A DNA stretch of 64,000 nucleotides from Candidatus Kaiserbacteria bacterium (GTDB taxonomy: Bacteria > Patescibacteriota > Minisyncoccia > Phycocordibacterales > UBA2100): the NCBI GenBank assembly GCA_016214605.1, contig JACROD010000020.1:30158-94157 (forward strand), written 5' to 3'. The notes beneath the pieces are model-generated. The model saw nothing but the letters and a program-made list of their open reading frames with translations, was not told where the DNA came from and did no database searches. Each line of letters begins with the position of its first letter. Position 1 is the stretch's first letter. A program made the translations under genes and the position numbers. Below are positions 3,089-48,959 of the stretch, piece after piece.

Positions 3089-5857
3089 ATGGAAACGCGC
3101 GGGATGGAGCGGACACGCTCCGCATCAGCGGAAAAATTCAAGTCTCCGCAGGAGGAGCTTGCCTATTTGCGTGAGCGCGTGCGAGAGAAAGAACGCGAGC
3201 TTGATGTCCCGTCGGGTAATCGGGTCGAGAGCGATCGTATCGCCAAGCGCGAGTTGCGTGCATATGGCGAGGTCCCCGCATCACGCGTCTTACACGAGGA
3301 CTTTGTCATACCCGAGCACGAGACGATCCGCCAAATACTCAAGCTCGAACCGGAGACTCACGACAAGCAGATCGACGGCCTTCTCGATATGGTCGCTCAG
3401 CATGGGATCCGCAATGCACTTTCCATCGCCTCGCGCATGAAAAACCCCCACCTCGAAGACGATCTACATCGGGCGATAGTACAGTATATCGCCGAAGGTC
3501 TGCCATCGTCCGGCTATATGCCGGAGAAGGTCCGCAAAGGCCTCAATATGGTGCTTTTTGAGATACATCCGCAGGCGCAGGTCGCTGGCGAACAGGGGCA
3601 AATGCAACAGCACAAACTGGAACAGATGCTCTCATCGTCGGAGCAATTGTATGCCGGACTCTTGTCGCTCGTCGGCGAAGGCGAGTCTTTTTCCCTAGAG
3701 ATCGCGGTAGCCGAGGGTACCGAGGAGGCATCGCTCTATCTCGCCGTACCACGGCAAAAAAAGGACCTGACTGAGCGCCTGATATCATCGGTTTTTCCCA
3801 ATGCGCGCATCGATGAAAACCGCGGCGATTACAATATCTTCAACTACGAAGGTGAACATGCCGCCGCCTATGCCAAGCTTGCCGAGCATCCGGCACGACC
3901 GTTGAAGACCTACGAAGCATTCGAGCACGATCCGCTCAATGTGACCTTGGCCGCCTTTGCACGTATTGCCAAGCACGGTGAAGGTGCGGCTCTGCAGATC
4001 GTCGTCTCGAGCGAAGGAGATCGATACAATCGCCACTACCAAAAGATGCTTCGTGAACTCGAGAAGGGGAAGACCATGGGTGAGGCGCTGCACGTCCCCG
4101 AGACGGTCTTTGGCGAGGTCATACACGATATCGCATCGTCGATATTTACTACGGATGCGGAAAAACAAAAAGAGAAGGAGCACGAAATGCGACGTACATC
4201 CGACTCGGTATCGGCCGAAGCGATCGGTCGCAAGATCAAAAGCCGGATCGTCCCCGTGACGATCCGGCTCGTCACGTCGGCACCGACTGCGGCGCGGGCG
4301 GAGGAATTGCTCAAGAACCTCGCAAGCCCGTTCGGTCAGTTTGACGATGCCAAGGGTAATCGCCTCGTTTTCAAGGAGGTATCGAGCTGGTATCTGGGGG
4401 ACTTTTTGCGCGCGTTTACCTTTCGCGAATTCGACGAGGGGAGTGCTTTGCCGTTTTCGCTCACCGAGATCACGTCGATCTTTCATTTCACCGCCGAGCT
4501 CGTGACCACATCGCGTGAGCTCAAGAAGAGCTACGCCAAACAATCTCCCGCCCCGGTCGAAATGCCGCAAGACGGTATCACGCTTGGTATCAATCGCTAC
4601 GGCGGGTCCGATACGACGGTCAAATTCGGCGCTGCGGATCGTTTGCGTCACGCCTATGTCATCGGCCAGACAGGTACCGGCAAGACGGGCTTGATCAAAA
4701 ACATGATCATGCAAGATATTAAAAATGGCGAGGGTGTCGCTTTCATTGATCCGCACGGCAACGACATCGAAGACGTACTCGCCTCGGTGCCGCCCGAGCG
4801 CTACGACGACGTGATCTACTTCGATCCGGCATATACGGCGCGGCCGATGGGCCTCAATATGCTCGAATACGACGTGACGCGCCCCGAGATGAAGACGCTC
4901 GTCATCGACGAGGTCTACGGCATCTTCCGCAAGCTCTATTCCGATGTGCCGGAAGCGTTTGGCCCGATGTTTGAGCAGTACTATCGCAACGCCGTGCAGC
5001 TCGTACTCGAAGACCCTGATTCGGGCAACACTTTTGTCGAGATCGCACGCATATTCGCCGACGCGGATTTTCGCGATATGAAGCTCGCACACTGCAAGAA
5101 TCCGATCGTCGTGCAGTTTTGGCGCAAAATCGCCGAGCAGGCGCAAGGCGATCCCAGCCTCGAAAACATCGCGCCGTACATCGTCGGCAAGTTCGACGTA
5201 TTCCTCACGAATGATGTCATGCGCCCGATCGTCGCGCAGGAAAAATCCGCTTTCGACTTTCGCGAGATCATGGATGGGCGCAAGATCTTTTTGGCCAATC
5301 TCTCCAAGGGGCGCTTGGGTGATCGCAATACTTCGCTCCTCGGGCTCGTGCTCGTGTCCAAATTCCTCCAGGCGGCATTTTCGCGCGCCGATACACGCGG
5401 GGATATGCCACCTTTCTATTTCTATATCGACGAATTCCAAAACTTTGCCACGCCGTCGATCTCGACGATCCTCTCCGAAGCGCGCAAATACAAACTCTCG
5501 CTCACGATCGCGCACCAATTCATCGCGCAATTGGATGAAAGTATCAGGGATGCCGTGATCGGCAACGTCGGCACCAAGGCGGCGTTCCGTGTTGGCACCA
5601 CCGACGCCGAATTCTTGTCCAAGCAGTTCGAGCCGACCTTCACCGCCGCCGATCTCGAAAACCTCCCCAATCGCAATGCCGTACTCTCGCTCCTGGTCAA
5701 TGGCAAGCCCGCGCGTCCTTTCACTATCGAGACAGTCAACCTCCCACATGTCGACTACAGCGTGGTCGACATGCTCAAAAAACTTTCGTACGATAAATAT
5801 GGAGCCGACCGAGAAGAAGTAGAGGCGGAAATAAGGCGCAAATTTGCCCAATTGTAG
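3089..5857 (+). CDS. TrwB/VirD4/TraG-family (T4SS coupling-protein-like) ATPase with ~520-aa N-terminal extension
   Basis: Walker A GQTGTGKTG, Walker B-like YFYIDEFQNF, QSxxQL-like AHQFIAQL; C-terminal half paralogous to CDS 58920-60203; TTG at 3068 judged less likely than ATG 3089. Confidence 0.75.
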   Translation: METRGMERTRSASAEKFKSPQEELAYLRERVREKERELDVPSGNRVESDRIAKRELRAYGEVPASRVLHEDFVIPEHETIRQILKLEPETHDKQIDGLLDMVAQHGIRNALSIASRMKNPHLEDDLHRAIVQYIAEGLPSSGYMPEKVRKGLNMVLFEIHPQAQVAGEQGQMQQHKLEQMLSSSEQLYAGLLSLVGEGESFSLEIAVAEGTEEASLYLAVPRQKKDLTERLISSVFPNARIDENRGDYNIFNYEGEHAAAYAKLAEHPARPLKTYEAFEHDPLNVTLAAFARIAKHGEGAALQIVVSSEGDRYNRHYQKMLRELEKGKTMGEALHVPETVFGEVIHDIASSIFTTDAEKQKEKEHEMRRTSDSVSAEAIGRKIKSRIVPVTIRLVTSAPTAARAEELLKNLASPFGQFDDAKGNRLVFKEVSSWYLGDFLRAFTFREFDEGSALPFSLTEITSIFHFTAELVTTSRELKKSYAKQSPAPVEMPQDGITLGINRYGGSDTTVKFGAADRLRHAYVIGQTGTGKTGLIKNMIMQDIKNGEGVAFIDPHGNDIEDVLASVPPERYDDVIYFDPAYTARPMGLNMLEYDVTRPEMKTLVIDEVYGIFRKLYSDVPEAFGPMFEQYYRNAVQLVLEDPDSGNTFVEIARIFADADFRDMKLAHCKNPIVVQFWRKIAEQAQGDPSLENIAPYIVGKFDVFLTNDVMRPIVAQEKSAFDFREIMDGRKIFLANLSKGRLGDRNTSLLGLVLVSKFLQAAFSRADTRGDMPPFYFYIDEFQNFATPSISTILSEARKYKLSLTIAHQFIAQLDESIRDAVIGNVGTKAAFRVGTTDAEFLSKQFEPTFTAADLENLPNRNAVLSLLVNGKPARPFTIETVNLPHVDYSVVDMLKKLSYDKYGADREEVEAEIRRKFAQL

Positions 5858-5869
5858 GCCCAATTGTAG
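5846..5869. repeat. Tandem 12-bp duplication (gcccaattgtag x2) spanning the ATPase stop codon
   Basis: Read directly. Confidence 0.8.
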
Positions 5870-5906
5870 GCTTCTTTCCGGGGCGGAAATGTGCTACAGT
5901 GGCGTC

Positions 5907-6491
5907 ATGCAAAAAATAAAAGAAGAGAAGACGTTTGTCATGATTAAGCCCGACGGTGTCCGTAAGGGCCTTATTGGTGAGGTTATTAAAAGGTTTGAAC
6001 AGCGTGATCTTAAGATTGTTGCGTTGGAGATGTTTCAGCCGTCGCATGAGATGATAGACAATCACTATCCGAAAGATGAAGCATGGAAGGAACGGCTTGG
6101 TAATAAGACCCTCGCAACATACGAGAAATATGGCATTGATGCCGTTAAGGAGCTTGGATCCGATGATCCTAAGGTACTTGGTGAATTAGTCCGTAAGTGG
6201 CTCCTGGACTTTATGACGTCTGCTCCCTTGGTGCGTATGGTAGTACAGGGCGTGCATGCAGTAGACATGGTCCGCAAGATCGCGGGGCCGACTATGCCAT
6301 ACGCGGCAGACATGGGGACACTTCGTGGCGATTTTTCGAATGATTCTCCAGCAATTGCCAATAGCGAGAAACGTGCGGTAGCCAACATCCTTCATGCGTC
6401 AGAAACTCCACAGGAGGCAGAGCACGAGATTGAATATTGGTTCGGTAAATCACCAATATTTCAGTATAAACGCTACGGAGTGGATGAGTAG
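5907..6491 (+). CDS. ndk: Nucleoside diphosphate kinase
   Basis: FVMIKPDGV, active-site His context NILHASE, ~195 aa. Confidence 0.85.
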   Translation: MQKIKEEKTFVMIKPDGVRKGLIGEVIKRFEQRDLKIVALEMFQPSHEMIDNHYPKDEAWKERLGNKTLATYEKYGIDAVKELGSDDPKVLGELVRKWLLDFMTSAPLVRMVVQGVHAVDMVRKIAGPTMPYAADMGTLRGDFSNDSPAIANSEKRAVANILHASETPQEAEHEIEYWFGKSPIFQYKRYGVDE

Positions 6492-13846: not shown

Positions 13847-13931
13847 GTTATCCCCACCACAAAAAACACATCCCACCCCCCCCATGACACAATAATCCTG
13901 TACCAGGGTCACTCTCATTAATCTCCCCATC

Positions 13932-43108: not shown

Positions 43109-45409
43109 TCATTCAGAATGGAGCTCCGTATGCGAGGTTTCGGTCCGCATGCGGAGCTCTTCGTGTTGTGCGAGTGTGGGGTCGGCCGCCACGATGCGTA
43201 TTGCTTCTTCGCGTGCTGCCTGGATGAGCTTCACGTTTTGGAGTGCTTCCATGCCGATGTCGGATACGCCCCACTGATGTCCGCCGCGCAAATCGCCTGC
43301 GCCGCGCGTCGCGAGATCGGCCTCGGCGAGTACAAATCCATCGTCGGACTTTTCAAGTGTCTTCAGTCGCTTGAGAGATATCTCCCCGGTCGTCTCAGGG
43401 AGGAGGAAACAGATTGGCGGATGCGAACTGCGCATGACGCGGCCGCGCAGCTGGTGGAGCTGTGCCAAGCCGAAGCGCTCGGCACCCTCGATCATGATCG
43501 CGGTCGCGTTGGGGACATTGACGCCGACTTCGACGACGGAGGTCGCCACGAGGATCTGTATTTCATTGCGTTCGAATCGTTTCATTACCTCGTCCTTTTC
43601 CTTTGGCTTCATCGCTCCGTGCAGAAGGCCGACTTCGTATTCGGGAAAGACGTCTTTTTGCAGGCGCTTTTGCTCGGCTTTGGCGGAGCGCGCCTGCAAG
43701 GCGCCGATCTTCGCCGGGTCCGGCTCTTCGATGCGCGGGCATATGACGTACGCTTGGCGGCCTTTCACCAGCTCCGCGCGGACGAGCTCGTATGCTTCGT
43801 CGCGCTGATCTTTTTTCACGATGCGAGTCGCAATCTTGGCGCGTCCCGGCGGGAGCTCGTCGAGGATGGAGAGATCGAGATCGCCATAGATGGTGAGCGC
43901 AAGCGTGCGCGGGATCGGGGTGGCGGTCATGGAGAGGAAGTGAGGTGAAGGGGCGCGGGACATTCCCACATTTCGCCCTGCGGAACTCCCTTCGGTCAAA
44001 CAGTCCTCGGTCAAAATGTGGGAATGTCCCGCGCCCTCACGGGCGTTTTTCTGCGCTAACGCGCGGCGCTGTTTGGTGCCGAAGCGGTGTTGTTCGTCGA
44101 TGATTGTGTACGCGAGGTGTTGGAACTCGACGGATTTTTGGATGAGCGCGTGCGTGCCGATGAGCATGGCGATCTCTCCATTTTTCACCCACTTGAGGAG
44201 TTGTGCGCGCGACACTTCGGTCGCTTTTCCTCTACCGATCTTGGAGGGGAATTTTTTGCACCCACTGCCGGTGATGAGACCGATGTTGATCGGGAGGTGT
44301 GAGAAGTATTCGATGAAGGATTGAAAATGCTGCGTAGCGAGGATCTCCGTCGGCGCCATATAGGCCACCTGCAAGGTCCCGCTTGTACGCCCCGGCGGGC
44401 GCGCAGTGACGATCGCGTAAGCCGTCGCCGCCGCGACCAGAGTCTTGCCTGAGCCGACGTCGCCTTCGAGGAGGCGCGCCATCGGGTGTGGTTTGCCGAA
44501 GTCTTTGAGGATGTCGTCGATCGCACGGATCTGTGCTTTGGTCGGGGGGAAGGCGATCGAGTCGAGGAATTCGTTGGCGCGCGCGTGCGCATCACTGATG
44601 GGAAATGTCTTGAACGAATCATTTTCCGCACGCTCCATCGCGCGCGTGATCTGTATCGTGAGGATCTCTTCAAAGGCAAATCGTTTGCGTGCGGCCGCCG
44701 CATGAGTGTCTTTCTCCGGTGTGTGGATATAAATGAGCGCCTCGGCGAGGTCGGGGAGATGATACCTTTTGAGGATGTCCGGCGGGATTGGATCGACTAG
44801 GGCCTCGTGTACATGCTGTGCAAAGACACGTTCGAGTGCGTGATAAAACCATCGACTCGTGATGCCTCGACTCTCCGGGTAGATAGGAAACAAAGACTTT
44901 GAATCCACTTCGACTGTGTCCGATGTCTCTCCGTTTGCAAAAAGCCCCTTGCTTGAACTGATCGCCGCCCCCACCATATCCGGCGGGATGATCTCGACCT
45001 CGGGGTTGGTCAGATACACGCGGCCCTCTTTGCCGCCGACCGTGCCGGTGACCTTGGCGACAGCGCCCTCGGGGATATACGAAGCGATGTAGGGCTGGTT
45101 GAACCACATGACCTTGACTCGGCCGGTCCCATCCTCAAACCATCCTTCAGTCGCATTGCGTCGACTCTTCCAAAGCTTCTTCGCTTTGAGTCCGTGAAAG
45201 GTCCCGATGAGCGTCACCTTGGTCCCCGGCACGAGCCCCGCCGCATTGGCCGATGCTCCTGCCGTGTCGAAGCGCACCGGGAAGTGATACAGGAGATCAT
45301 GGATCGTATGCAGTCCCAGCCGCTTCAGAGCCGCCTTCTGGTCCGGCACGAGGCGGAAATAATCGGTGATATTACTTGACGGGTCCATAATTATAGTATA
45401 CAATATCAC
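43109..45409 (-). CDS. recG: ATP-dependent DNA helicase RecG
   Basis: Wedge + helicase motifs (GDVGSGKT, DEQHRFG, TATPIPRT); start may be 45386. Confidence 0.9.
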   Translation of the reverse strand: MILYTIIMDPSSNITDYFRLVPDQKAALKRLGLHTIHDLLYHFPVRFDTAGASANAAGLVPGTKVTLIGTFHGLKAKKLWKSRRNATEGWFEDGTGRVKVMWFNQPYIASYIPEGAVAKVTGTVGGKEGRVYLTNPEVEIIPPDMVGAAISSSKGLFANGETSDTVEVDSKSLFPIYPESRGITSRWFYHALERVFAQHVHEALVDPIPPDILKRYHLPDLAEALIYIHTPEKDTHAAAARKRFAFEEILTIQITRAMERAENDSFKTFPISDAHARANEFLDSIAFPPTKAQIRAIDDILKDFGKPHPMARLLEGDVGSGKTLVAAATAYAIVTARPPGRTSGTLQVAYMAPTEILATQHFQSFIEYFSHLPINIGLITGSGCKKFPSKIGRGKATEVSRAQLLKWVKNGEIAMLIGTHALIQKSVEFQHLAYTIIDEQHRFGTKQRRALAQKNAREGAGHSHILTEDCLTEGSSAGRNVGMSRAPSPHFLSMTATPIPRTLALTIYGDLDLSILDELPPGRAKIATRIVKKDQRDEAYELVRAELVKGRQAYVICPRIEEPDPAKIGALQARSAKAEQKRLQKDVFPEYEVGLLHGAMKPKEKDEVMKRFERNEIQILVATSVVEVGVNVPNATAIMIEGAERFGLAQLHQLRGRVMRSSHPPICFLLPETTGEISLKRLKTLEKSDDGFVLAEADLATRGAGDLRGGHQWGVSDIGMEALQNVKLIQAAREEAIRIVAADPTLAQHEELRMRTETSHTELHSE
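43951..44036. repeat. Perfect 21-bp inverted repeat (gggcgcgggacattcccacat … atgtgggaatgtcccgcgccc) with 44-bp spacer, in-frame inside recG
   Basis: Read directly. Confidence 0.85.
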
Positions 45410-45560
45410 TCGGTTAGATCCTTGAGTTCAAGACATCATATCACTTTATCTCTACTTGAGACGAGCTTTTTGCGGCTTTCCGCCAGTATAGGAAGGCCCC
45501 AGCAAGCTCGTCTCATCTGAGGCAAGTCGCCGCTCGACGGTTCGAGCAAGGAGAACGACG

Positions 45561-46364
45561 ATGACGGCAACCCCGATCACGTCCGAACAAGAGAAACAGT
45601 ACAAGCGCTTCGTCGAAGACACGAGCAATCGTGGCCTCAAGGAAGTGATGGATAAAGACGCCATGCAACGATTGCTGTCGAGGGGAGGCGAGTTTCAAGC
45701 CTATTTTCTCGCTGGCGTGCGCCGATTCAGCACGAAGGCACCGGATTATGCGCTCGCGCGCATGATCCTCGGCAAGGACTTCATCTCGCCCGAGGAGATC
45801 GCGAAGTCGCGCGGTCTCGTCTACACCGATGAGCAACTCGCGAAGTTCGGCGAGACGTTGCCGCCGCAGGAAGCGCTCGAATGGTGCCGCGACAATCGCG
45901 CGGGGCTCATGGCTGGGCCGCCGCGGTCGATGTCTCTGCTCGAAGTCCGCGCACTTAAGGATGTCTACTTCTACTCGAAGGAAGGCGGTTGGTATGCTGG
46001 CGAGACGGAGATATTCGCTCGCAATGACAAGGTCGATCCGGTCTGGATCGCGTTCCTCAAGGAGCCAGTCGAGGAATCGTTCAACAAGAATTGGACCGAA
46101 CAGCAAGTGCTGGTCACCAATCCGATGGTCGTGCCCAATGCGGCCGAGGAAACCTGGTGTCTCACGACATACAAAGCGGTGCGGGGCGTCTATCTGCTCC
46201 CGAGCTGTTACGTGAGGATTTCCAGTGTGGACTCGGACGGTTACCGCGTCGGCGTCGGCGACTTCGGCGGGGCGGGCCTCCACGTCGGCCACTACTGGGA
46301 CGACGATCGGGACTCCGACTTGGGCGTCTCGGCTGTCCGGAAGTTCGGCACCTCGAACTCTTGA
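45561..46364 (+). CDS. DGR target (variable) protein, 267 aa, no signal peptide
   Basis: 3' 120 bp = VR. Confidence 0.7.
   Translation: MTATPITSEQEKQYKRFVEDTSNRGLKEVMDKDAMQRLLSRGGEFQAYFLAGVRRFSTKAPDYALARMILGKDFISPEEIAKSRGLVYTDEQLAKFGETLPPQEALEWCRDNRAGLMAGPPRSMSLLEVRALKDVYFYSKEGGWYAGETEIFARNDKVDPVWIAFLKEPVEESFNKNWTEQQVLVTNPMVVPNAAEETWCLTTYKAVRGVYLLPSCYVRISSVDSDGYRVGVGDFGGAGLHVGHYWDDDRDSDLGVSAVRKFGTSNS
46225..46344 (+). repeat. DGR variable region (VR)
   Basis: 120-bp match to TR with 13 mismatches, all at TR adenines. Confidence 0.85.
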
Positions 46365-46391
46365 ATGTTCGGCTCTTTTTGAACCATTGAA

Positions 46392-46413
46392 CCCTCGCGC
46401 GTCAGCGCGAGGG
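46392..46413 (+). terminator. GC-rich hairpin (ccctcgcgc gtca gcgcgaggg) + T-run, 48 nt downstream of VR
   Basis: Read directly; typical position of DGR VR-flanking stem-loop. Confidence 0.5.
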
Positions 46414-46714
46414 TTTTCTGTTTTGATATTTTCTTGCTATGATTTTGATATCTTGCTAATGAAGATCAGGCTACGGTTTGATCTCGCGGGATGTCTCGCC
46501 TCATACTCGACAGAGTGCCGGCGTTTAAGGATTTCGGCAGAGTGCGAAGAGGATAGAGATTCGAACTTCTTGCTCGTTTCTGGTGGAGATGTCCGCGAGG
46601 GCTACTCCCGGATAAAATTCAGGACCGAGAGGATATAGGATTGAGGGCAACCCATCGGTAAACCTCAAGATCCGGTGCCGCGCACAAGCGGGTCATAGAT
46701 GGAAACGGGCAAAC

Positions 46715-46834
46715 ATGTGGACTCGGACGGTAACCGCGTCAACGTCGGCGACTTCGACGGGACGGGCCTCAACGTCAACAACAACTGGGACGACAATCGG
46801 AACTCCGACTTGGGCGTCTCGGCTGTCCGGAAGT
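46715..46834 (+). repeat. DGR template region (TR)
   Basis: See VR; AAC-rich. Confidence 0.85.
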
Positions 46835-46883
46835 CATATCTCTTTCCTACAAATACTCCCGGTTGAAAGGCTGGAGTATTTCG

Positions 46884-47240
46884 TTACCGATCTCTACTTG
46901 ATCTGATCCATCCGCCGAGCATTCGGCCGATCTCATCAATATCGGATTGGAGAATGACGTATTTCTTATTGTCGATTGCTTTCACATCGGACATGAGTCT
47001 GATGAATACGCGCAAAAGATTCAATCTTGAACTCGCGTTTTCGAGGACGGGTAGTTTTTCGGCTTTTCCGATGTGTCCGGCAAGGAGCACCGCTTCCAAT
47101 ATCTCGAGTATAAGCGATTCGCATTTTTGCCAGATCGTGTAGCGATCCTGCCTCGAGATATCGGCGCGATATCCGTAAAAGGTCTTGTACAGATCGTACG
47201 TTTTCTTGAAGATCGGAGTATCAAAATCATTCATACGCAT
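46884..47240 (-). CDS. avd: Accessory variability determinant (Avd)-like four-helix-bundle protein
   Basis: 118 aa, between TR and RT, start codon overlaps RT start divergently. Confidence 0.6.
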   Translation of the reverse strand: MRMNDFDTPIFKKTYDLYKTFYGYRADISRQDRYTIWQKCESLILEILEAVLLAGHIGKAEKLPVLENASSRLNLLRVFIRLMSDVKAIDNKKYVILQSDIDEIGRMLGGWIRSSRDR

Positions 47241-48287
47241 GAAAATCTACGAAGATGTATACCAGTCTATTATTTCGCCGGAGAATCTCTTTGCCGCATG
47301 GCAAGTATTCAAAAGCGATAAGCGAAACAAGGCAGATGTGGCGGAGTTCGAGCAAAAAGTCGAACGGCACATCTTTCAACTGCATCGCGATTTGCGCTAC
47401 AAGACGTACCGACATGGACCGTATCACGGATTCTGGATCCACGATCCAAAACGCCGCCGGATACACAAAGCGACGGTGCGTGACAGGGTGCTTCATCATG
47501 CAATCTTTCGCGTACTCAATCCCATCTTCGAGCCTACATTCATACCGACTTCTTTTTCCTGTCGGATTGGAAAAGGCACGCACAAAGGCGTGATGGCGGT
47601 AAGCGACATGCTTCGCGCGGAAAGCCACAACAATACGCGCACGTGCTGGGCGCTCAAATGCGACGTGCGGAGATTCTTCGACAGCGTCGATCATGCGATT
47701 CTCCTTCGGATTCTTGAAAAGAGGATCAAAGACACAGACACCTGCGCCCTGCTCCGGCACATAGTAGGGAGTTACTCTGCGGATAGTTGCGGGGGGGGGG
47801 TCTTATGGGTATTCCCATCGGCAATCTCACTTCGCAGCTCTTTGCGAATATCTACATGAATGAACTGGATCAGTTTGTGAAGCATGAGTTGAAGGTAAAG
47901 CGATATGCGCGGTACACGGATGATTTTATCATTGTATCGGCGGATCGCGAGTACCTCGCATTGCTCATCCCACGCATCGAGTTGTTTTTACAGACGAGAC
48001 TTCGGCTCAGCTTGCATCCGCGTAAAGTCGAGATACGTGCATATCACCGAGGAATCGATTTTTTAGGATACGTGATCTTGTCGCATCACATGCGGCTTCG
48101 CACCAAGACGAAGAAGCGCATGATCCGCAAGCTCCGCGAACGTGTCGTAGCGTACCGGAGCGGGCACATCAAAGAAGAGCAACTGCTTGGCTCACTGCGA
48201 TCGTACCTGGGCGTGCTTTCGCACGCCGATGCATATGGTCTGATCGAGGCGCTCAAGAATGACTTTTGGTTTTGGTTGCATGAATAA
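47239..48287 (+). CDS. DGR reverse transcriptase, interrupted by frameshift at G10 tract 47791-47800
   Basis: N-term MKIYEDVYQSIISPENLFAAW, motif 4 IPIGNLTSQ (DGR-type SQ), motif C YTDD; ORFs 47185-47859 and 47787-48287 join across G10. Confidence 0.85.
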
Positions 48288-48469: not shown

Positions 48470-48628
48470 ATGAAAAAAATAAAAAGCTCTCGAACGCGGC
48501 ATGGTATAAAAAAGTTCGCACCAGTTGCCGGGACAAAAACACACGCCAAGTCTTTGAGTGAATTTGCATTTTGGAAACAAATCGCTTTACAACAGCAGGC
48601 GCTTCTCCATGCAAAAAATAGGACATAA
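48470..48628 (+). CDS. Putative small antitoxin (52 aa), overlaps toxin start
   Basis: Position/overlap only. Confidence 0.25.
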   Translation: MKKIKSSRTRHGIKKFAPVAGTKTHAKSLSEFAFWKQIALQQQALLHAKNRT

Positions 48629-48959
48629 GCACATACGGAAGGGAGACGTGTGGCTGATCGAGAATATGGTCGCGATAGGCCATATGCAAAAGGGAACGCG
48701 CCCCCATGTCGTAGTGACGCAAGTGACGGGCGAGACGGTTACCGTCGCACCCTGCACATCCGTTCGCAAGACGATTCGTCATAAATATGTCGTGGAAATA
48801 CGGCCCACCAAAGACAACGGTCTGCGTACCGTTTCGTTCATCTTGCTCTCGCAGTCGTTTGCCGCCGATACCAGTCTCTTGCAAAAAAGAATCGGGCATC
48901 TCGATGTAAACGAGATCGCTCGCGTTCAACTCGAGTATGTGAAGTACGTGACCGATTGA
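48609..48959 (+). CDS. PemK/MazF-family toxin-like protein
   Basis: GDVWLIE…TRPHVVVTQ…VAPCTS…. Confidence 0.6.
   Translation: MQKIGHKHIRKGDVWLIENMVAIGHMQKGTRPHVVVTQVTGETVTVAPCTSVRKTIRHKYVVEIRPTKDNGLRTVSFILLSQSFAADTSLLQKRIGHLDVNEIARVQLEYVKYVTD

Follow-up and report, generated by a model that had tools for sequence, protein, structure and literature searches.

The window analysed here, a stretch of 64,000 nucleotides of contig JACROD010000020.1 from a Candidatus Kaiserbacteria metagenome-assembled genome (MAG; assembly GCA_016214605.1), carries a diversity-generating retroelement (DGR) whose reverse transcriptase (RT) gene is split into two open reading frames (ORFs) at a run of ten G's (G10). 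On balance, we think that G10 is probably a real hypermutable tract, which acts as a heritable and reversible ON/OFF (phase-variation) switch of the DGR RT and which stands in the OFF position here. The RT gene, its two parts and the tract are located as follows (window coordinates):

47791..47800, plus strand: G10 tract and point of frameshift; Gly codons if read in frame, in the loop directly before RT motif 4 (GIPIGNLTSQ).
47239..47859, plus strand: N-terminal RT ORF, 206 aa; fingers and part of the palm, followed by a 19-codon out-of-frame tail; exact match to MBI5004169.1.
47806..48287, plus strand: C-terminal RT ORF, 160 aa from ATG 47806 or 166 aa from TTG 47787; motifs 4–7, including YTDD, and the thumb; exact match to MBI5004170.1.
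47239..48287, plus strand: whole DGR RT gene, 349 aa if the tract is G11; Pfam RVT_1, E = 3e-21, residues 72–280 of the restored protein.

The two pieces are annotated by NCBI as separate proteins of the Candidatus Kaiserbacteria MAG, whose contig is 100,913 bp long. The sequence between positions 47780 and 47810 is CGGATAGTTGC-G10-TCTTATGGGT, the ten G's occupying 47791–47800. Translation from ATG 47239 continues through the tract and reads ...GSYSADSCGGGVLWVF...* with a stop at 47859. The downstream frame at the tract reads (M)RGGGLMGIPIGNLTSQ...; it is the -1 frame, and it is open from the tract (...GGGLMGIPIGNLTSQ...) to the stop at 48287. The sequence-only reading of this DNA had placed the change of frame at these ten G's and proposed that either G11 or G8 would restore a single ORF. 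ORF translation bore out both the coordinates and the frames, and genes rebuilt in silico with G11 and G8 encode single ORFs of 349 and 348 aa, respectively; G9, G10 and G12 all lead to truncation at 206–208 aa. Judged from the reading frames, it is the length of the tract that decides if translation of the RT can continue into motifs 4–7 and the thumb.

A homopolymer count showed that G10 is the sole homopolymer of at least 9 nucleotides in the window. The next-longest G run is 6 nucleotides long, and the other longest runs of any base are A8 (present twice) and C8 (present once). The number of G10 matches expected from dinucleotide-preserving shuffles of the window is 0.02. Since GGG is the least-used Gly codon in the long ORFs of the window (16% of 1,252 Gly codons), a run of three or four GGG codons would be unlikely if codon choice were the only cause (P = 0.004 and 0.0007, respectively).

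The restored RT contains the GIPIGNLTSQ and YTDD motifs. A protein search with it retrieved about 7,900 homologs, mostly of exactly 349 aa; the best of them is 71% identical, and the names of their sources point to Patescibacteria/Paceibacterota. In a phmmer comparison with the Bordetella phage DGR RT (bRT, 8ub7_A), an E-value of 1.3e-48 was obtained. The G11-restored RT was modelled with AlphaFold (AF2) on 32 homologs at a predicted local distance difference test score (pLDDT) of 87.8, and the best structural match of the model found by Foldseek was the cryo-electron microscopy structure of the same Bordetella enzyme, with TM scores of 0.83/0.88. In the alignment of the 32 homologs, the frame break falls in a loop that is variable in both length and sequence and is located between the I-V-x-S-Y/F and G-I/V-P-I-G-N-L-T-S-Q motifs. 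The only segment of the model with pLDDT below 50 comprises residues 183–187, C-G-G-G-G, i.e., the product of the tract itself, and the loop is an insertion relative to Bordetella bRT, which lacks most of it. The model thus places the tract in what is predicted to be a disordered, length-tolerant surface loop. Since this loop is low in pLDDT, variable in length and mostly missing from bRT, one Gly more or fewer should be tolerated, and such tolerance is what a switch made of an in-frame repeat requires.

Five of the top intact homologs have GGG or GGGG in the loop, and the DNA of four of these contains G9 (three cases) or G12 (one case), all in frame. Since searches for intact proteins miss broken genes, metagenome contigs were scanned in a frame-blind manner for runs of at least 7 G's within 30 nt upstream of degenerate codons for PIGNLTSQ. 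The scan retrieved 69 loci with G7–G14 in the loop, with varied flanks and distances to the motif. A locus was called ON or OFF according to whether its N-terminal RT homology, located by tblastn, is in frame with the motif; four duplicate loci were removed and 65 were left. Tract lengths were G7 (9 loci), G8 (8), G9 (21), G10 (17), G11 (8), G13 (1) and G14 (1). This distribution peaks at G9–G10, unlike the four-fold drop per added base (geometric decay) expected by chance. The frame is OFF in 42 loci, ON in 17 and undeterminable in 6, so that OFF loci make up 71% of the 59 that could be judged. Frame offsets of 0, +1 and +2 are found in 17, 23 and 19 loci, respectively, with none preferred (chi-square p = 0.62). 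In OFF loci, the N-terminal part is open for 175–250 codons, the C-terminal part runs for 135–160 aa to the normal stop, and the tract is, with few exceptions, the sole lesion. Pairs of template region (TR) and variable region (VR) with adenine-specific mismatches were found, among loci with enough flanking DNA, at 21 OFF and 9 ON loci.

Clustering of the RTs that carry a tract by amino acid sequence yields about 55 groups at 90% identity, 41 at 70% and 17 at 60%, and their identity to the window RT falls as low as 32–38%. Their source names include Kaiserbacteria, Paceibacterota, Saccharibacteria and Peregrinibacteria; the distant groups are, by source name, Saccharibacteria (from termite gut), Peregrinibacteria and Altimarinota, all of which belong to the candidate phyla radiation (CPR). 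The closest relatives of the window RT (loci L118 and L132, 86% amino acid identity over the N-terminal part) also have G10, with matching flanks and frame offset. About 340 kb of DNA flanking the loci (contig L117, described below, excepted) contain just two other G/C runs of at least 8 nucleotides. The tract therefore appears to be specific to the RT loop and does not reflect a genome-wide habit. A search of viral contigs for the same combination of G tract and PIGNLTSQ codons gave no matches. A scan of GTDB genomes with the RT alignment, which keeps the best-scoring matches and is thus biased against split genes, returned 80 intact relatives, none of which has a long homopolymer in the loop.

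Several individual contigs retrieved by the scan deserve mention. Contig L097, from a termite-gut member of Saccharibacteria, has an RT gene with G13 and, in addition, a second G10 tract (L097:5198-5207) that is located 13 nt inside the DGR target gene (ORF 5185-5967, VR 5840-5954), so that both the enzyme and the target may be phase-variable there. Contig L117 (L117:1-9297, Ga0179593_1321684) has, in addition to the pattern match, 14 further G runs of 8–15 nucleotides, but no RT homology; possibly it is an artefact, or else an unusual element rich in G runs. Four contigs (L089:19, L114:22, L129:29 and L108:58) end within 20–60 nt upstream of the G tract, as would be expected if assemblies break at a repeat that is heterogeneous in length.

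We compared tracts of closely related strains with each other. Loci L085 (G10) and L103 (G11) are 99.9% identical over 1.1 kb, and the sole gap between them, and their sole point of difference, is the tract; the same is true of L106 (G10) and L145 (G11). Protein clusters built at 90% identity around P0001 and P0016 contain full-length RTs of 346 aa (G9) and 345 aa (G6) along with N-terminal fragments that end in ...AGGGF* (188 aa, G10), ...AGGGVLKAFR* (193 aa, G11) and ...AGGVLKAFR* (192 aa, G8). The same clusters also hold C-terminal fragments of 164 aa ('MRGGGSKGIPIGN' products).

One strain from the Rifle aquifer (PRJNA268031/PRJNA292723), in which the recG-target-TR-Avd-RT synteny is as in the window, has G10 (OFF) in six sample assemblies from three pipelines (L154–L159), G9 (ON) in three assemblies (L160–L162) and G11 (OFF) in one (L103). 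The alleles of this strain are more than 99.8% identical over 5 kb. Over 5.1 kb, L154 (G10) and L160 (G9) are 99.8% identical and differ by nine scattered single-nucleotide polymorphisms (SNPs) and the one-base indel in the tract; L154 and L156, both G10, are one SNP apart. Thus, for homologous tracts in relatives, length is polymorphic among close strains. When the accessory variability determinant (Avd) of the window, the two pieces of its RT and the RTs restored with G11 and G8 were looked up as exact sequences, only the source NCBI contig was returned and no other assembly of the strain. The single candidate pair of alleles from one sample (L175 and L183, both from sample 3300029908) was rejected since the two are only 91% identical and come from two species. 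Loci L082 and L103 have identical TRs and VRs although their RT regions are only 94.7% identical, which suggests that the cassette is of mosaic or recombinant origin.

A different repeat occupies the same loop in the RTs of many other CPR DGRs. Several intact genome loci have (GA)8-15 there, read as ERERER. Examples of (GA)n in the loop are found at L010:1850-1900, L045:2520-2575, L046:1200-1258 and L058:3550-3610, and in proteins P0161–P0270. A protein search with the N-terminal part of the window RT (184 aa) as a query gave truncated products almost exclusively. Eighty of the 119 fragments end just past the ERER stretch and 16 of 119 past GGG, so that (GA)n is commoner than poly-G among truncated RT products; since all matches of this search are 177–318 aa long, they are unusable for ON:OFF ratios. 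Clusters of (GA)n RTs at 90% identity form allelic series that span all three frames. For example, a (GA)12 allele (OFF, 13 contigs) and a (GA)14 allele (ON) are otherwise 99.8% identical, and a sister species has (GA)13 and is OFF in the other frame. In the loops of L088, L111, L115, L120, L125, L151, L148 and L087, the repeat is composite, with (GA)n followed immediately by Gn; between L115 and L120, which are 98.7% identical, the (GA)n part, the Gn part and the ON/OFF state all differ. Length miscalls are a much smaller problem in dinucleotide repeats than in homopolymers. Since the independent (GA)n series behave in the same way as the G tracts, we argue that length variation in the loop is biological.

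The element around the RT is a complete DGR, with target gene and VR, TR and Avd present:

45561..46364, plus strand: DGR target gene, 267 aa, with the VR at its 3' end, 20 nt before the stop; NCBI MBI5004166.1.
46226..46344, plus strand: VR, a 119-nt direct repeat of the TR, 90% identical to it.
46716..46834, plus strand: TR, 119 nt, contains 26 A.
46884..47240, minus strand: Avd, 118 aa; Pfam PF22296 bAvd, E = 1.4e-16.

All TR/VR mismatches (12/12) are at TR adenines, which would happen by chance with a probability of about 1e-9, and we therefore conclude that the DGR of the window diversified its target in the past. Thus, an RT of the DGR clade, an adenine-specific TR/VR pair and an adjacent Avd gene are all found, and it is the RT frame that is interrupted as assembled. 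A Pfam search with the target gene (267 aa) gave no match.

One can envision the following scheme. Slipped-strand mispairing at replication would add G's to the tract or remove them. Lengths of 8 or 11 (modulo 3) would yield the full-length RT with three or four Gly residues in the disordered surface loop; at other lengths, translation would stop 19–22 codons on, before the catalytic YxDD. With the RT OFF, no TR cDNA would be made and the VR would be frozen. The window allele would be OFF, one +1 slip (to the 349-aa RT) or one -2 slip away from ON. In the population, most cells would keep the current target variant, while rare ON revertants would resume mutagenic retrohoming, i.e., adenine mutagenesis of the target. 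For this scheme to hold, G10 would have to be the true majority state in the population from which the window comes, switching of the tract would have to be frequent and reversible, and the tract would have to control retrohoming and be maintained by selection; these points are inferred.

The sequence-only reading gave equal weight to a miscounted homopolymer and to slipped-strand control. The comparative data favour the latter, because tracts recur in about 55 lineages, 71% of judged loci are OFF, both halves of the gene are intact, near-identical strains differ in tract length and (GA)n repeats provide a parallel; an error in this one contig nevertheless keeps some small probability. Such an error, with the true gene being intact and having G11 (or G8), strikes us as rather improbable. 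It is true that homopolymers this long are a classic site of length miscalls, that G11 gives 349 aa, the commonest homolog length, and that the strain is without an independent assembly for comparison. Yet out-of-frame lengths recur in independent assemblies of relatives, including G10 in six that come from different assemblers, and an OFF share this high among the 59 frame-blind loci is far beyond a plausible consensus error rate. Besides, the two closest relatives, L118 and L132, have G10 in the same frame, and (GA)n tracts at the same site give the same pattern.

The tract and the frameshift may also be real but non-adaptive, resulting from decay at a fragile site in an often dispensable gene, in which case OFF alleles would be young pseudogenes and no selected switching would take place. 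We consider this explanation unlikely, though it accounts for several observations. The three frames are used 17/23/19 times, as expected without selection, and ON samples have the same VR consensus as OFF samples. In one published survey, over half of candidate DGRs were dropped as inactivated (PMC5758913), and recently frameshifted RTs with intact TR/VR are noted in another (PMC3521204). It is harder to see, however, why mere decay would leave pure tracts in so many lineages, given that synonymous GGN codons would stabilise them and that GGG is the rarest Gly codon. Decay also has to contend with the facts that tracts arise at different positions of one loop, as either G runs or (GA)n, that the flanking DNA is essentially without such tracts, that OFF alleles are, with few exceptions, free of a second lesion and that long-tract ON alleles coexist with OFF alleles in the same species.

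Two further explanations would make the G10 allele functional as it stands. Full-length RT could be made from G10 by recoding, i.e., through RNA polymerase slippage or -1 ribosomal frameshifting (on G GGG GGG), with the tract setting a low level of expression. Most tract-bearing loci are indeed out of frame yet otherwise intact, the window needs a -1 shift, and a G heptamer allows perfect tRNA re-pairing. However, a +1 correction would be required in homologs about as often as a -1 correction (23 vs. 19 loci) and in-frame alleles exist, which indicates that no fixed programmed shift is conserved. Neither is there a stimulatory structure 3' of the tract: the minimum free energy of the 47801–47900 segment, -21.4, is close to the mean of its shuffles, -20.4 (z = -0.33). 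In addition, transcriptional slippage is best documented on A/T runs and not on G runs. Programmed frameshifting as the main mechanism was rejected on the basis of the missing downstream structure and the unconserved direction of the shift; recoding as a whole is very unlikely to be the explanation, and some leaky rescue of the G10 allele at the RNA level may occur. We give even less credence to a split enzyme, in which both ORFs are translated and the parts reassemble into an active RT. The C-terminal part would then be initiated from TTG 47787 or ATG 47806, and the G run would play the role of a Shine-Dalgarno-like element. The break does fall in the only disordered loop, an ATG is present 5 nt past the G run, and gene callers predict C-terminal ORFs in many relatives, such as the 164-aa fragments mentioned above. 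Against this, the start context is not conserved, with relatives that have no ATG after the tract, and each of the two OFF frames has its own tail and stop.

Several observations weigh against our preferred explanation, a slipped-strand switch of the RT. The G10 of this contig could be a miscount, the strain being known from one assembly, and a dispensable gene with a neutral mutational hotspot would likewise show uniform use of frames. The G9, G10 and G11 alleles sit in different samples or strains that are also a few SNPs apart, and no mixture of alleles was seen within one sample. Rifle samples with ON and OFF alleles have identical consensus VRs, so that DGR activity showed no link with the state of the tract, though a consensus cannot show minority VR variants. 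Finally, most related RTs are without a tract: it is present in none of 78 genome loci and in about 4% of the top intact protein matches.

The slipped-strand switch has well-studied counterparts in the poly-G and poly-C contingency loci of Campylobacter jejuni, Neisseria and Haemophilus. As in those loci, an uninterrupted run of at least 7 G's is located in an ORF, and its length toggles the frame between a full-length and a truncated product, as seen in silico for the window and in relatives, where the products are of 345/346 vs. 188/192/193 aa. Tract lengths are likewise centred on G9–G10, and close strains include carriers of ON as well as OFF alleles. In C. jejuni NCTC11168, 29 loci with tracts of at least 7 are reported (PMC4965091). 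Unlike in known contingency loci, the switched gene is a DGR RT gene and not a gene for a surface structure or a restriction-modification system, and the hosts are uncultured CPR bacteria. Phasevarions, i.e., phase-variable DNA methyltransferases with simple sequence repeats (SSRs) in mod or hsdS, are similar in that an SSR in the ORF of a nucleic-acid enzyme gates a source of diversity at the population level (PMC5909438, PMC7383803); the output here differs, being targeted hypermutation of the VR of one gene rather than a methylation-dependent regulon.

When compared with the DGR of Bordetella phage BPP-1 (mtd/VR, TR, avd, brt), the window element shares the IGxxxSQ-type motif, the bRT fold, Avd and an adenine-specific TR/VR pair at the 3' end of the target. 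It differs in its order, which is VR-TR-Avd (reverse)-RT, in the inserted SSR-carrying loop before motif 4 of the RT, which is lacking in bRT, and in the interruption of the RT ORF. Frameshifted or truncated RTs beside intact TR/VR have been described in surveys as cases of recent inactivation (Schillinger et al. 2012, PMC3521204; Wu et al. 2018, PMC5758913); both surveys mention frequent 'inactivated' RTs but no common cause. In contrast to the picture presented here, the passages found there by term searches take those cases as sporadic mutations or possible sequencing errors and mention no recurrent tract in a fixed loop. In the literature searched (full text and DGR papers; the main paper on CPR DGRs, Paul et al. 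2017, was outside coverage), neither a repeat tract in DGR RT genes nor phase variation in CPR bacteria is reported. As far as could be checked, therefore, a recurrent SSR in the loop of CPR DGR RTs has not been described previously.

The question of how DGR mutagenesis is kept in check has no settled answer. If uncontrolled, retrohoming would erase useful target variants. A slippage tract in the RT gene would be a simple, heritable and reversible means of control at the population level; it would need no regulator and would suit the tiny genomes of CPR episymbionts. We put forward more tentatively, as something that may well turn out either way, a broader proposal, namely, that one surface loop of the DGR RT carries a selected contingency repeat, either poly-G or (GA)n, CPR-wide, and that targeted hypermutation itself is phase-variable. 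This would amount to two-tier bet-hedging, with the majority of cells locked OFF and diversification reopened by rare slippage revertants. If true, it would also account for the large number of seemingly 'broken' DGR RTs in genome surveys. Pipelines that drop 'frameshifted' RTs or annotate their halves separately, as was done here, would systematically miss or misjudge such DGRs. Control of DGR activity by the tract is directly testable with the existing Rifle time-series data.

Several minor observations concern the surroundings of the DGR. The recG(-)/target/TR/Avd(-)/RT gene order (window positions 43109–48287) is common to the window and to the Rifle-aquifer relatives L154–L165, whose RTs are only about 62–68% identical to the window RT, and the DGR thus appears to occupy a conserved chromosomal position beside recG. 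The single C8 run, besides which no G/C run other than G10 reaches 8 nucleotides in the window, is located at positions 13876–13883 directly 5' of an ATG (CCCACCCCCCCCATGACA) in an apparently intergenic region and could affect expression of the downstream gene. An ORF for a PemK/MazF-like toxin (PF02452, E = 8e-16) is found at 48558–48959, 270 nt downstream of the RT gene.

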